Assembly (NCBI GenBank): GCA_048938855.1
Contig: JBHLLT010000002.1
Span: 384,001-448,000, forward strand
DNA: 64,000 nt
Origin: Promethearchaeota archaeon
GTDB lineage: Archaea > Asgardarchaeota > Lokiarchaeia > Sigyniarchaeales > SOKP01
Direction of reading: 5' to 3'
Shown: in pieces, positions 54,456-58,245 of the stretch
How positions within the stretch are numbered: the stretch's first letter is position 1
Layout of the letters: each line of letters opens with the position of its first letter
Translations under genes and position numbers: made by a program
Notes under the pieces: model-generated
The model's database searches: none
What the model saw: only the letters and a program-made list of their open reading frames with translations
What the model was told of the DNA's origin: nothing

Positions 54456-54941
54456 TCAAGCTTCAAAATTGGCTATTTCCGCTCCACAAGCATCGCAATA
54501 TTTAGCTGATTCATTTATAGGAGTTCTACAGTTTGGACACAATTTTCTTTTAACTATTTGATTACTTTCTGTTTCCTCAGGATGTGGGGGTGGAATATCT
54601 TTATTAGATATATCAACATATATTGTACTCCAAATTCTTTGGAGTGGTAATTTATTTCCATGAGTTGGACAAATTGTTCTAACCAACATCCAAGGTCCAG
54701 ATGTTTTGATACTTCGAGTAGTAGTTTCTCGCCCGCATTTATAACATGTAAAAAATCCCTTGCGAATACTAGGAATAAATTGATTTTTTTGCAATAAAGG
54801 AATTTTAATTAGCTTTTCTCCATGTTTAAGACACCTATGTTTAATGTAAATATTATTTCCTTCAACTTTTAAGAAAAAGATAGCACCAGGGACACCGCAT
54901 TTAGGGCAGTTAAAAAGTTTTTCATCAACAGATAGAGCCAT
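54456..54941 (-). CDS. Metal-binding protein: two CxxC...CxxHG units plus a C-terminal zinc ribbon
   Basis: CPKC...CLKHG, CYKC...CPTHG, CPNC...CDAC. Confidence 0.75.
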   Translation of the reverse strand: MALSVDEKLFNCPKCGVPGAIFFLKVEGNNIYIKHRCLKHGEKLIKIPLLQKNQFIPSIRKGFFTCYKCGRETTTRSIKTSGPWMLVRTICPTHGNKLPLQRIWSTIYVDISNKDIPPPHPEETESNQIVKRKLCPNCRTPINESAKYCDACGAEIANFEA

Positions 54942-55049
54942 TATATTTACTCATTATTCTTGATTAATTAAAAACAAAAAAATACCCCCTTAAATTTTTG
55001 TTGGATTCAAAAGAAGATATATGTAATATATGGTAGGATAAGATTAATC

Positions 55050-56132
55050 TCATAGTGTATAATATAAAATTCCCATAAATAAAGCACAAAATAATGGATT
55101 CAAAATGTTATCATCCACTTTAAGATTTAAAAAATCAACTATAAAAAAAACAGTCGCTCCTACAAGTGATATTATTAGTATTTTTGAAAGATTTAGAATA
55201 TTTTGCTCAAATATGGTTAAAACTATAACACATATTCCAAGAGATACTAAGAATCCAGATACATATCCAACTAATGTTTTATTTGAAGATTTTGGAATAT
55301 GAAATCTGCCAAATCTAAGTCCAAATATTGATGCCGCACCATCTCCTAAGGTTGAAATTAATGCCACAGCGGTAAATATTCCAAAGGGTAGGAAAAGTGT
55401 AGGTACAAGAGATAAAACTAGGGCCACAGGTCTTGTAAACTCATAGATTTCATTTTTCTTTAAAGTTTTTCCTAGAAGATTAGAGATGCAGGTAGGTAGT
55501 AAATGATAGATATTCTTTTTATTGAAAATATGAGATAAACGAATATAATCTAAAGCAGCAAATATGATCACACCTGTATAACCAACTGTTAATATTAAAA
55601 AGATACCATATTCTGTCCCTGAAATCCCCCAAAATGAGTCAACATCCCACATCGCATCCCAAATATAAACTGCAAATAACCATAAAAAAATAATGATCAC
55701 TGCAGGTAATAAATGAAATGCTTTTCTGTGAATATCCGTCTTTAAAGCGATATTTCTATTATTAAGATTCTTTACATCCATTAACGTAAATCGATTTACA
55801 AACTTATCTATAGTTCGATCATCTCTAATGTTTGGTTTCTTCTTTAATATAAATTGATATTGAAAGAACAAAATAGACAAAACTAACAAGGGTGCATAAA
55901 TACATATGATTTGAAGAGCTAGCCCTTCAAACCATTTTACTTGACTCGTATCTCTCACAAAAAAGAACGGAAAAACAACACCAGCAACTACCCACAAGAT
56001 TGATATCAAAATTGAATTTGTAAGATTATGGTCAGGATACTTTTTTCTCAATTTTAAAGCATAACATAGATGAGTAATCCCATTACCTATATAAAAAATC
56101 GTAACTGGGAAAGTAAGATAATTATAAACCAT
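55050..56132 (-). CDS. CTP-dependent polyprenol/phytol/dolichol/diacylglycerol kinase-family membrane protein
   Basis: HRKAFH, GDGAASIFG..FGR, KTLVG, DDN. Confidence 0.82.
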   Translation of the reverse strand: MVYNYLTFPVTIFYIGNGITHLCYALKLRKKYPDHNLTNSILISILWVVAGVVFPFFFVRDTSQVKWFEGLALQIICIYAPLLVLSILFFQYQFILKKKPNIRDDRTIDKFVNRFTLMDVKNLNNRNIALKTDIHRKAFHLLPAVIIIFLWLFAVYIWDAMWDVDSFWGISGTEYGIFLILTVGYTGVIIFAALDYIRLSHIFNKKNIYHLLPTCISNLLGKTLKKNEIYEFTRPVALVLSLVPTLFLPFGIFTAVALISTLGDGAASIFGLRFGRFHIPKSSNKTLVGYVSGFLVSLGICVIVLTIFEQNILNLSKILIISLVGATVFFIVDFLNLKVDDNILNPLFCALFMGILYYTL

Positions 56133-56217
56133 AGTATTACTAAAACATGATTTTAAAAATACGTTATGAAAAAAGGAAAAATAAATTATATGTAAAAATA
56201 ATTGAAAAATAATATTA

Positions 56218-56505
56218 CTAAAGCCCTAAAAGCAAAATATCATCAATCGTTTTATGGAGTTTTTTTACATTTTCTTCGCCAAGGGTTTTTTCCACTTCAG
56301 TCTTTACTCCAAGAAATAAGCCAATTCCAGAGATCAGAGCATTTTGGATCAAGTTATTAAATCCGCTCTTATCTCCCTTTACATCTTTAAACTCCTCAAC
56401 ACGCTTAAGCATCGCCTCTTCATACTCTTTAGCAGTGTTTGTTCGAAGCTCTGCGAGTTTTCTTATCCTCATTTCGTCTTTATCTTTAATGATTTCTTCT
56501 GGCAT
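56218..56505 (-). CDS. Hypothetical 95-aa helical protein directly abutting tes
   Basis: ATG immediately follows the tes TAG stop (TAGATG); AGGTGA SD within the end of tes. Confidence 0.7.
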   Translation of the reverse strand: MPEEIIKDKDEMRIRKLAELRTNTAKEYEEAMLKRVEEFKDVKGDKSGFNNLIQNALISGIGLFLGVKTEVEKTLGEENVKKLHKTIDDILLLGL

Positions 56506-58245
56506 CTAAGTATCATCACCCTTTTTAATTCCGCCATTACGGGCTACTTCATGTTCAATTTCTGCTACTGCTTGACCCGTAGAAGTGTCAAACTCGTTTT
56601 TAATCTTAGCAGTAACTTGTTTTGCAATTTGCTTTTCGATAATAGGTCTGTGAAGCGTGTTCATCGTGCAGAATGATACTTCCTTGACGCTTCCATCTGG
56701 CATTGCTATTCCGAAGTGCACTATACATCTTTTCGTCCTTTCAATGTCCATATTATATGCATCTTGAAAATGCATGCTTGACAATAATAGCGCACCATAA
56801 CTGAATGAACTAACACTCTCCCAATCACCTCGCATTAACAAACGACTAAACATTTCCATTAACTTTCCAGGTTTCTTGGTATATTGTAAAACCCCAAGCA
56901 AAAAACGAGCACGAAGTTGAGTTTTATCCAAGAAGTTTAATCCTTTATCCAAAGTCTCTCCGATCCCTCCTCCTAAAAGATCAGTAAAAAGTTTAAGCGG
57001 TTTCTTTTCTTTATGCCTAATTTTTTCCCAAAATCTATTAGCGAAATCGATAACTTTTAATGGGTCAAAATACTCCATGATTGGCATCATCTCGCCAGAA
57101 TCAGGATCTACTATCATATATGAGGCGAATCCACAATCTGGATGGCAGGTAAACTCGATAGGTTCAACATCTGCTAAGTAAGCAATGACTCTGCCTAGCT
57201 CTACAATGGTTGTTAAGGGATACCATGCATTTTCCATGCTAATCTTTCCCCCTGTTTGCTGTTCTATGATCTTAAGTACATCAGCGTTTGTTATCCTTAA
57301 ATCCTGTCGTTCTTCAAAAGCAATTCGACCACATAAGGACACGGGTTGAAAAGTAATACCCCGCACTACATCAACATTATCAATTGCATATTGAATAATA
57401 TTTCCAACTTCAATATCAGTTACACCTTTGGCAATTGTAGCTACAAGTACAATAGAGTCAAGTCCAGCTTTTCTACAATTGTCTATAACTCTTTGTTTAT
57501 AAGCCATCAGATTCTTGATTCCACGAGTTTTTTCATAGGTCACATCATTAATTCCATCAAATTGGAAATATAATGTATCTAAACCGGCTTCTTTTACTTT
57601 TTTAGTCCATTCGAGACCACCGTTTTTACGACTAAATCCATATCCATTTGTAGCAACAATAACTTCTTTAAATCCATTATCTTTAGCCATTCTACAGATT
57701 TCAGGAAAATCCTTTCGAACTGTTGGCTCACCACCAGTAAACATAATAGCAACAGCGGGCATAGGTTTACTTCTAAAATGTTTCATAATCCTATCAATTT
57801 CTTCTAATGTGGGTTCAACAAGGTATCCACTCTGAAGAACGTTTGCATAGCAAAAGTTACAGTTAAAATTACAACGATTTGTAAGATCTATTAATGCTAA
57901 TGAGCATGTTGAGAGGTGTTGGTCGCATAATCCACAATTATAGGGACATCCTCTTGGATCTTCCCCTACACAATCAGGGGGATTTGCTTCGCCATCTTTA
58001 TCAAATTTCCATACAACATTTCCATCTTTATCTTTTATTGCCCAGTGAGTCCACTTATAATATTTAGCACTCGAACTCAACTTATCTTTAAACTCTCCGT
58101 GTTCTTCGCAAGACTTTTTCATCCAAATTTGATCATTTTCTTCATATACTTCCGCATCAATAGGTTCTAAACATTCTGGGCAAATACTACGTGTTTTTCT
58201 ATAATAAGGTACGTTTATATACTCATCATCATCTAAATGGTACAT
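56506..58245 (-). CDS. tes: Tetraether lipid synthase (GDGT-macrocyclic archaeol synthase), radical SAM
   Basis: N-terminal CPEC...CEEHG, GCPYNCGLCDQH, CNFNCNFC, GGEPT, CHPDCG, MHFQDAYNMDIERTKRC, FC. Confidence 0.88.
   Translation of the reverse strand: MYHLDDDEYINVPYYRKTRSICPECLEPIDAEVYEENDQIWMKKSCEEHGEFKDKLSSSAKYYKWTHWAIKDKDGNVVWKFDKDGEANPPDCVGEDPRGCPYNCGLCDQHLSTCSLALIDLTNRCNFNCNFCYANVLQSGYLVEPTLEEIDRIMKHFRSKPMPAVAIMFTGGEPTVRKDFPEICRMAKDNGFKEVIVATNGYGFSRKNGGLEWTKKVKEAGLDTLYFQFDGINDVTYEKTRGIKNLMAYKQRVIDNCRKAGLDSIVLVATIAKGVTDIEVGNIIQYAIDNVDVVRGITFQPVSLCGRIAFEERQDLRITNADVLKIIEQQTGGKISMENAWYPLTTIVELGRVIAYLADVEPIEFTCHPDCGFASYMIVDPDSGEMMPIMEYFDPLKVIDFANRFWEKIRHKEKKPLKLFTDLLGGGIGETLDKGLNFLDKTQLRARFLLGVLQYTKKPGKLMEMFSRLLMRGDWESVSSFSYGALLLSSMHFQDAYNMDIERTKRCIVHFGIAMPDGSVKEVSFCTMNTLHRPIIEKQIAKQVTAKIKNEFDTSTGQAVAEIEHEVARNGGIKKGDDT

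Follow-up and report, generated by a model that had tools for sequence, protein, structure and literature searches.

A conserved tes-S95-TM360 gene unit of one Asgard family, and its neighbour ZnR161, a tandem Cys3His protein that probably serves a separate role

Two gene systems at a tes locus

We analysed a stretch of 64,000 nucleotides (the window) from a Promethearchaeota archaeon (assembly GCA_048938855.1, contig JBHLLT010000002.1, forward-strand positions 384,001 to 448,000), in which tes, the gene for a tetraether lipid synthase (Tes), is followed on the same strand by genes for a 95-amino-acid (aa) helical protein (S95), a 360-aa membrane protein (TM360) and a 161-aa protein with two Cys3His repeats (ZnR161). 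The original prediction for this DNA had taken all four as one undescribed lipid module, with the 161-aa protein as a dedicated redox partner or regulator of tetraether synthesis. We think it reasonably probable that two separate things lie side by side here: a tes-S95-TM360 lipid unit, and a metal-ribbon adaptor, ZnR161, that belongs to an Asgard-wide family and is not dedicated to tetraether synthesis. The first would be a conserved three-gene unit specific to one Asgard family. The second would be transcribed on its own and belong to an uncharacterised family of soluble proteins found across Asgard archaea, and its position beside tes would be one lineage-specific placement.

The features of the locus, in the order tes to PolB1, are as follows. 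The four same-strand open reading frames (ORFs) have the positions and the order (tes, 95-aa ORF, kinase-like gene, 161-aa protein) originally given for them.

56506..58245, minus strand: tes, tetraether lipid synthase, 579 aa, with an N-terminal C-X2-C-X20-C-X2-H ribbon and a radical S-adenosylmethionine (SAM) core
56218..56505, minus strand: S95, helical protein, 95 aa, single-copy, directly after the canonical tes, its ATG abutting the tes stop
55050..56132, minus strand: TM360, multi-pass membrane protein, 360 aa, divergent polyprenol-kinase-like, CTP_transf_1 superfamily
54942..55049, minus strand: spacer between TM360 and ZnR161, with T7 and T5 runs and then an AT-rich box about 30 nt before the ATG
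54456..54941, minus strand: ZnR161, 161 aa, two Cys3His repeats, linker and C4 ribbon
51493..54408, plus strand: PolB1, family-B DNA polymerase, 971 aa (PF00136 152 bits, PF03104 84.6 bits)

tes, S95 and TM360 form a conserved unit

The Tes of the window scores 477.2 bits against the NCBIfam equivalog NF045702 (cut-off 450), matches PF23545 (70.3 bits), PF04055 (95.9 bits) and also PF13353, and contains the CxxxCxxC motif in its translation. The ATG of S95 comes directly after the tes stop codon, TAG. In about 50 genomes, drawn from all 13 genera of one Asgard family, tes, S95 and TM360 are collinear on the same strand. S95 is found in 61 of 70 genomes of this family, representing 12 of the 13 genera, and in every case follows the Tes match by 100-150 bp; it is single-copy, never lies beside the second Tes paralogue, and was not detected in other Asgard families, one genome excepted. 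It has no Pfam or NCBIfam match, and the ESM Atlas returned nothing usable for it. Judged by linkage only, S95, which would be translationally coupled to tes, most likely serves Tes as a small accessory subunit or as a membrane tether.

TM360, which nearly every genome of the family has downstream of tes, contains at least seven hydrophobic segments. Its homologues carry the labels ‘dolichol kinase’ (JGI) and, in one case, ‘diacylglycerol/polyprenol kinase family’ (NCBI), as given by these sources. PF01148 is matched by 7 of 24 TM360 homologues (best E 9.4e-5), while TM360 of the window has no match to it at E<=1, and a TM360 profile found no match among PDB sequences. Like the CTP_transf_1 polyprenol (dolichol/phytol) kinases (PF01148, COG0170), TM360 is multi-pass and has a conserved G-D-G-x-A-S-x-x-G stretch, but it differs from them in an extra N-terminal membrane region and in its fixed place downstream of tes. 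We rejected an assignment as CDP-archaeol synthase, given that a canonical CarS is encoded elsewhere in the genome, on contig C81. Again by linkage only, the most likely substrate of TM360 is an isoprenoid alcohol or a lipid phosphate.

A full-text literature search on tes gene neighbourhoods in Asgard archaea returned nothing relevant, and we found no paper that describes S95 and TM360 travelling with tes, as they do in more than 60 genomes of the family. The proposed lipid module is supported for tes, the 95-aa ORF and the kinase-like gene; ZnR161 is only an occasional neighbour of these.

Both tes and TM360 have unlinked relatives in the same genome. A second Tes-like paralogue (L002, G000:C22:37417-39150; 579 aa) scores 373 bits against NF045702, below the cut-off, and has an X22 spacer in its N-terminal ribbon; most genomes of the family have it, and neither S95 nor TM360 ever comes after it. 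A paralogue of TM360 (349 aa; G000:C49:268008-269742) adjoins another ORF with a weak PF01148 match, and the two may be a tandem polyprenol-kinase-like pair.

ZnR161 does not travel with tes

We fetched loci with ZnR161 homologues (the ZnR family) from species-representative genomes, and surveyed the family across 301 Asgard genomes. It is present in 110 of these, with three to six copies per genome in some lineages. Within the window's own genus ZnR occurs in 8 of 22 sampled genomes, and within its family in 23 of 68; Tes occurs in 70 of 71 genomes of that family. In eleven loci the row reads tes, S95, TM360, sometimes one to three inserted genes, ZnR and then a convergent PolB, and in all eleven the Tes is about 90% identical to that of the window. 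None of the remaining true ZnR homologues has tes within 8 kb. Among the sampled genomes, ZnR adjoins tes only in G000, G195, G207 and G219, with locus L029 as a further linked case; the two genes are 35 kb apart in G121 and on different contigs in about 15 other genomes.

In a maximum-likelihood tree, all tes/PolB1-linked ZnR copies form one clade (100/100), so the adjacency of ZnR161 and tes represents one historical placement. Nested inside this clade is the copy of L017, which comes from a complete chromosome where ZnR is still near PolB1 and where tes and TM360 are elsewhere. When the locus broke up, ZnR stayed with PolB1 and did not follow tes. ZnR161 is also much less conserved, with 47-59% identity to its counterparts versus 72-91% for the neighbouring genes. 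Finally, the T7 and T5 runs and the AT-rich box between TM360 and ZnR161 suggest that ZnR161 is its own transcription unit; read in this way, the spacer is probably a terminator followed by a promoter of ZnR161.

Distribution, phylogeny and synteny therefore do not support the idea that ZnR161 is a dedicated Tes accessory factor. The original prediction of a dedicated redox partner or regulator does not agree with a presence in 8 of 22 genomes of the genus, an adjacency confined to one clade and some 28 other gene contexts. It had proposed synteny across Asgard genomes as a check, and named many unlinked relatives and no conserved linkage to tes as evidence that would speak against it; these are what we found, with ZnR161 unlinked to tes outside the one clade.

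Some relatives (L021:6039-6614, L022:5268-5831 and L029:7348-7902) have an inserted gene for a DUF4272 protein, about 185-190 aa long, separating TM360 from ZnR.

Architecture of ZnR161

ZnR161 can be divided into four parts, all encoded on the minus strand:

54750..54920: repeat 1, residues 8-64, C12-X2-C15-X21-C37-X2-H40-G, three strands and a helix
54606..54749: repeat 2, residues 65-112, C66-X2-C69-X21-C91-X2-H94-G, topology as in repeat 1
54549..54605: linker, residues 113-131, rich in Pro, Glu and Gln, variable in length, predicted disordered
54471..54548: C-terminal C4 zinc ribbon (C135, C138, C149, C152), DZR / Zn_Ribbon_1 type

In an alignment of 24 close homologues, C12, C15, C37, H40 and G41 of the first repeat and C66, C69, C91 and H94 of the second are invariant, as are C135, C138, C149 and C152. 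The six repeat cysteines remain invariant in 34 more diverse members, in which the histidines are sometimes replaced or shifted. Residues 135-156 match PF12773 (32.8 bits, cut-off 27.3) and PF13240 (27.3 bits, cut-off 25), so that the C-terminal 25 residues are a bona fide DZR / Zn_Ribbon_1 member; this likeness covers the tail only and is uninformative on the tandem N-terminal module. By its sequence, ZnR161 is a protein with three predicted metal sites, not two, of which the third is an ordinary DZR / Zn_Ribbon_1 ribbon.

An AlphaFold2 model based on the 34-sequence alignment has a predicted local distance difference test score (pLDDT) above 92 for residues 10-112, with each repeat consisting of a hairpin, a third strand and a helix, and a pLDDT below 50 for linker residues 116-129, which are predicted to be disordered. 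The repeats match one another in reciprocal hidden Markov model (HMM) searches (24.4 and 22.0 bits) and in hhalign (probability 98%), and by these sequence comparisons are mutually homologous.

The whole-protein model found nothing in Foldseek at E<=0.001 and a best Z of 3.2 in VIA-align, and the ESM Atlas yielded only uncharacterised Asgard clusters, with PF22811 as its structure match for ZnR161. Longer proteins that carry the module (281-859 aa) add further ribbons and a weak DUF308 match, none of which is informative as a partner domain. A fusion to a radical SAM domain was absent among the 149 ZnR representatives and longer forms scanned, and ZnR161 itself is stand-alone. Two distant paralogue candidates on contig C81 were dropped after their sequences were read as Elf1-type and MBF1-type ribbon proteins.

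These features are consistent with a family build in which two homologous Cys3His modules pack as a pseudo-dimer, joined through a flexible linker to a C4 ribbon. ZnR161 would then most likely bind three metal ions (Zn or Fe) and, as a metal-ribbon adaptor, most likely dock onto partner proteins.

In one Asgard family (f9; loci L074, L076-78 and L096-101) we also observed conserved gene pairs encoding proteins of about 620 aa and 758 aa, each with several double-ribbon modules. They are flanked by genes for a PF02441 flavoprotein and an HD-associated-domain protein, with no radical SAM gene nearby.

The repeats resemble the Tes N-terminal domain

The original prediction had described the 161-aa protein as two Tes-type domains. 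The peptides on which it drew are exact (ZnR161 residues 12-41 and 66-95, Tes residues 22-50), and its statement that the corresponding domain of GDGT-MAS binds iron through three cysteines and one histidine agrees with the published ligands of the mononuclear iron, C9X2C12X20C33X2H36 (PMC9433317). The repeats share this ligand motif, though not its exact spacing: the central spacer is X21 in both ZnR161 repeats versus X20 in the Tes of the window and in GDGT-MAS. Among the 3,693 ORFs of the genome, the pattern C..C.{20,21}C..HG occurs three times, twice in ZnR161 and once in Tes, and the looser C..C.{15,30}C..H in 21 proteins. This coincidence exceeds chance.

Profile comparison extends the resemblance. 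In hhalign, the two repeats match an alignment of 97 Tes N-domains with probabilities of 92.2% and 95.6% (scores 30.1 and 37.0). As a control, the non-ligand columns were shuffled 150 times while the ligands C, C, C and H stayed fixed. The shuffles score 12 +/- 3.8 with a maximum of 26.5, and none of the 150 reaches the real scores, which lie 4.7-6.5 standard deviations above. Since the real scores exceed those of ligand-fixed shuffles, the similarity extends past the four ligands. Furthermore, in a six-frame search of the genome with PF23545 (Zn_ribbon_HMPTM), the family of the Tes domain, ZnR161 repeat 1 ranks next after the two Tes paralogues (14.8 bits, E 0.1).

ZnR161 falls short of the PF23545 gathering cut-off of 27 bits, however, reaching 15.1 bits (E 0.017) with repeat 1 only. 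Of 34 ZnR homologues, 13 match PF23545 at E<=1, the best at E 0.0011 and none at the cut-off. These results leave room for another explanation, namely that the similarity is convergence within the generic zinc-ribbon fold, and that ZnR161 is a structural zinc protein without functional tie to its neighbours. Several searches speak for this. BLASTP finds no match between the repeats and Tes, and aligns ZnR161 with Tes only through the C-terminal ribbon, weakly (E 0.06); HMMs of the repeats do not retrieve Tes from the proteome, and give the Tes paralogue about 10 bits, which is noise level; a profile of the ZnR family has no GDGT-MAS match among PDB sequences, its best match (E 0.02) being to a C-terminal ribbon; and the ribbon families DmmA-like_C, PSV_ORF131-like and Cas12f TNB are matched by similar numbers of ZnR members as PF23545. 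The heterogeneous gene contexts (see below) would fit as well.

Structural comparison cuts both ways. A model of repeat 1 only (pLDDT 68) aligns with 7tom_A in VIA-align at Z 3.5, with a root-mean-square deviation (rmsd) of 2.9 A over 44 residues and 25% identity. Model residues 10-54 are placed on chain residues 7-52, which is the rubredoxin-like domain of GDGT-MAS, and in Foldseek GDGT-MAS ranks 13th, with 26% identity. This identity of 25-26% is the highest among the structural matches of repeat 1. Generic ribbons fit at least as well: NrdR has Z 4.3 (rmsd 1.8 A, 41 residues) and the ribosomal 9e6q_Ae Z 4.4. These NrdR-type and ribosomal-protein-type C4 ribbons, the best-fitting solved single domains for a ZnR161 repeat, are Cys4 zinc sites in nucleic-acid-binding proteins; their identity to ZnR161 is about 15%, and the ATP-cone or ribosomal context in which they occur is absent at ZnR161.

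Taken as an explanation of the whole, convergence has difficulty with the margin over the shuffles, with the correct domain of GDGT-MAS being aligned at top identity, and with an exact motif that is unique to ZnR161 and Tes in this genome. We regard it as a doubtful, though serious, alternative. On profiles and models, the repeats have a real resemblance to the Tes N-domain, while membership in PF23545 is not established, and distant homology is plausible. What the ZnR161 modules have in common with the rubredoxin-like domain of Tes and GDGT-MAS (7TOL, 7TOM) is the pattern C-X2-C-X20/21-C-X2-H-G and a beta-hairpin ribbon, so that ligand pattern and fold class would be shared and the modules may be distant homologues. 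They differ in being stand-alone and a tandem duplicate, not fused to a radical SAM core, and in having an extra helix each, one additional residue between the knuckles and a Pfam score well below the cut-off. The description as two Tes-type domains was therefore right about homologous repeats with a resemblance beyond the ligands, but it goes further than PF23545 allows and had missed the C4 ribbon. Likewise, the comparison with the Tes N-domain that it proposed gives hhalign probabilities of 92-96%, with generic ribbons fitting the model equally well.

Radical SAM genes near ZnR genes

We fetched 59 further ZnR loci; when all loci are grouped according to the genes around them, 28 contexts result. 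By local HMM searches, a radical SAM gene lies within one, two or three genes of ZnR in 3, 5 and 6 of the 28 contexts, compared with genome backgrounds of 2.4%, 4.5% and 6.6% (nominal P 0.03, 0.008 and 0.009); radical SAM density is similar in five other genomes. Pfam adds one adjacent case, beside the tandem pair of the L047 type. Direct radical SAM neighbours also occur in L024/L079 (SPASM type) and in B12-dependent radical SAM islands, in both gene orders (L030-32, L082-84, L086), and radical SAM genes lie within two genes in L048/56/58, L057, L067 and L073. The ZnR copies linked to B12-dependent enzymes are spread over two to three separate ZnR clades. Other neighbours of ZnR include a pyridoxal phosphate (PLP) enzyme, TrmI, a hemerythrin/PAS protein, a NUBPL-type ATPase, a POR-like enzyme, GatD and ribosomal protein L2.

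These associations bear on the possibility that ZnR proteins are relatives of the Tes N-domain in the form of stand-alone, rubredoxin-like Fe(Cys3His) modules, which shuttle electrons in trans to radical SAM enzymes (Tes, B12-dependent and SPASM). This generalises the earlier idea of a redox partner with the electron flow reversed. It would draw together the ligand motif of the GDGT-MAS iron site (spacing counted alike), the profile and structural resemblance to the Tes domain, the radical SAM genes adjacent or within two genes at several loci, their nominally significant enrichment, and the occurrence of B12-linked copies in more than one clade. The enrichment is post hoc, however, and comes from 5-7 of 28 contexts, and the adjacent enzymes are a mixture: an unassigned SPASM enzyme and unassigned B12 enzymes, together with members of unrelated pathways (AmmeMemoRadiSam, MoaA, CofG/CofH and a glycyl-radical activase). 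We considered whether they could be lipid enzymes (Gms, Gmm, Grs), which was not borne out on inspection. Of the genomes in the same genus that have 47-57 radical SAM genes, most are without any ZnR, PF23545 is never reached at its cut-off by ZnR161 or the 34 homologues, and a generic zinc ribbon such as NrdR fits the repeat at least as well.

The chemistry adds a further difficulty. Reducing a radical SAM cluster takes a far lower potential than a mononuclear rubredoxin-type centre normally has, which argues against such a relay. Each reductive cleavage of SAM consumes one electron. In the Tes reaction, every C-C bond formed takes two C-H activations and therefore two cleavages of SAM (PMC9433317). 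Tes thus needs an electron donor, not an acceptor, and the premise of the original prediction, that electrons must be removed during C-C coupling, is to be reversed: they are supplied. No role for the rubredoxin-like domain is given in PMC9433317 or in a 2026 review (PMC13459092), and the review describes the related Gms, which is without this domain.

We consider an electron relay of this kind unlikely. A related formulation, in which the tandem Cys3His proteins are Asgard-specific rubredoxin-like iron modules, derived from the Tes N-domain or sharing an origin with it, and in trans either relay electrons to radical SAM enzymes or dock onto them, with Tes among these enzymes in this lineage, seems to us quite unlikely.

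Family-B DNA polymerases near ZnR genes

The convergent neighbour of ZnR161 suggests a different possible partner. ZnR161 and PolB1 have their stop codons 47 bp apart, and ZnR161 could be a replication or repair zinc-ribbon protein that works with family-B DNA polymerases, with tes as an unrelated neighbour. The genome has only two PolB genes, and chance would place about 0.1 of the 28 contexts within three genes of a PolB. ZnR is found within this distance of PolB1 in the window clade, including L017, where it was retained with PolB1 after tes had gone, and of PolB2 in L026-28 and L080. The latter belong to a separate ZnR clade and have a co-directional row of a Rad51-family ATPase, ZnR, a 92-aa ORF and PolB2. 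The nearest named single-domain fold, the NrdR ribbon, is also a DNA-binding one. Set against this, there are only two independent contexts, noticed post hoc; ZnR161 and PolB1 are convergent, not co-transcribed; the remaining contexts, about 26, are without replication genes; and ZnR is absent from most genomes of the genus, all of which need PolB. We therefore find a role with the polymerases decidedly unlikely. The radical SAM and PolB associations are both post hoc and involve few independent events, and we treat them as weak leads.

Some further observations concern the polymerases and their surroundings. The exonuclease domain of PolB1 is preceded by an N-terminal extension (window 51493-51800, plus strand), about 100 residues long and with a very high content of Lys and Glu. 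Its orthologue in L020 (approximately 8495-12450, minus strand) has 1,318 aa, compared with about 971 aa elsewhere, and a split tblastn match; length and split suggest an insertion such as an intein. PolB2 (804 aa, 25% identical to PolB1) is encoded at window 1-2152 on the plus strand and continues upstream (G000:C49:383738-386152), with a 97-aa ORF before it; it is between this pair of small ORF and PolB2 and the Rad51-family ATPase gene that ZnR is located in L026-28 and L080. Just beyond PolB1 (window 50047-51327, plus strand) lies a gene for an FAD-dependent oxidoreductase with a FAD_binding_3 domain and weak lycopene-cyclase/halogenase-like matches; it resembles the geranylgeranyl reductase type, and its synteny is retained in three loci only.

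Weighing the adaptor reading

We return to the reading that we prefer, in which ZnR161 is a metal-ribbon adaptor separate from the lipid unit. Several points weigh against it. The term adaptor is taken from the predicted architecture, with the partner proteins putative and the metal either Zn or Fe. The exact Cys3His-Gly motif is found only in ZnR161 and Tes, whose genes are 1.5 kb apart, as would be expected if the two were functionally linked. The enrichment of radical SAM genes near ZnR, in turn, hints at biology related to these enzymes and not at a neutral adaptor.

Implications

As a possible free-standing relative of the Cys3His iron domain of Tes, ZnR161 would lend itself easily to measurements of metal content and redox potential. 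If a reading as electron relay or docking factor were true, it would provide a testable function for the rubredoxin-like domain of Tes. With respect to tetraether synthesis itself, our results remove ZnR161 from the list of likely factors, which saves effort, and the comparative data point instead to S95 and TM360 as the candidates. If S95 is a subunit of Tes and TM360 a lipid kinase, the unit would be relevant to the making and remodelling of membrane-spanning lipids in the closest archaeal relatives of eukaryotes.

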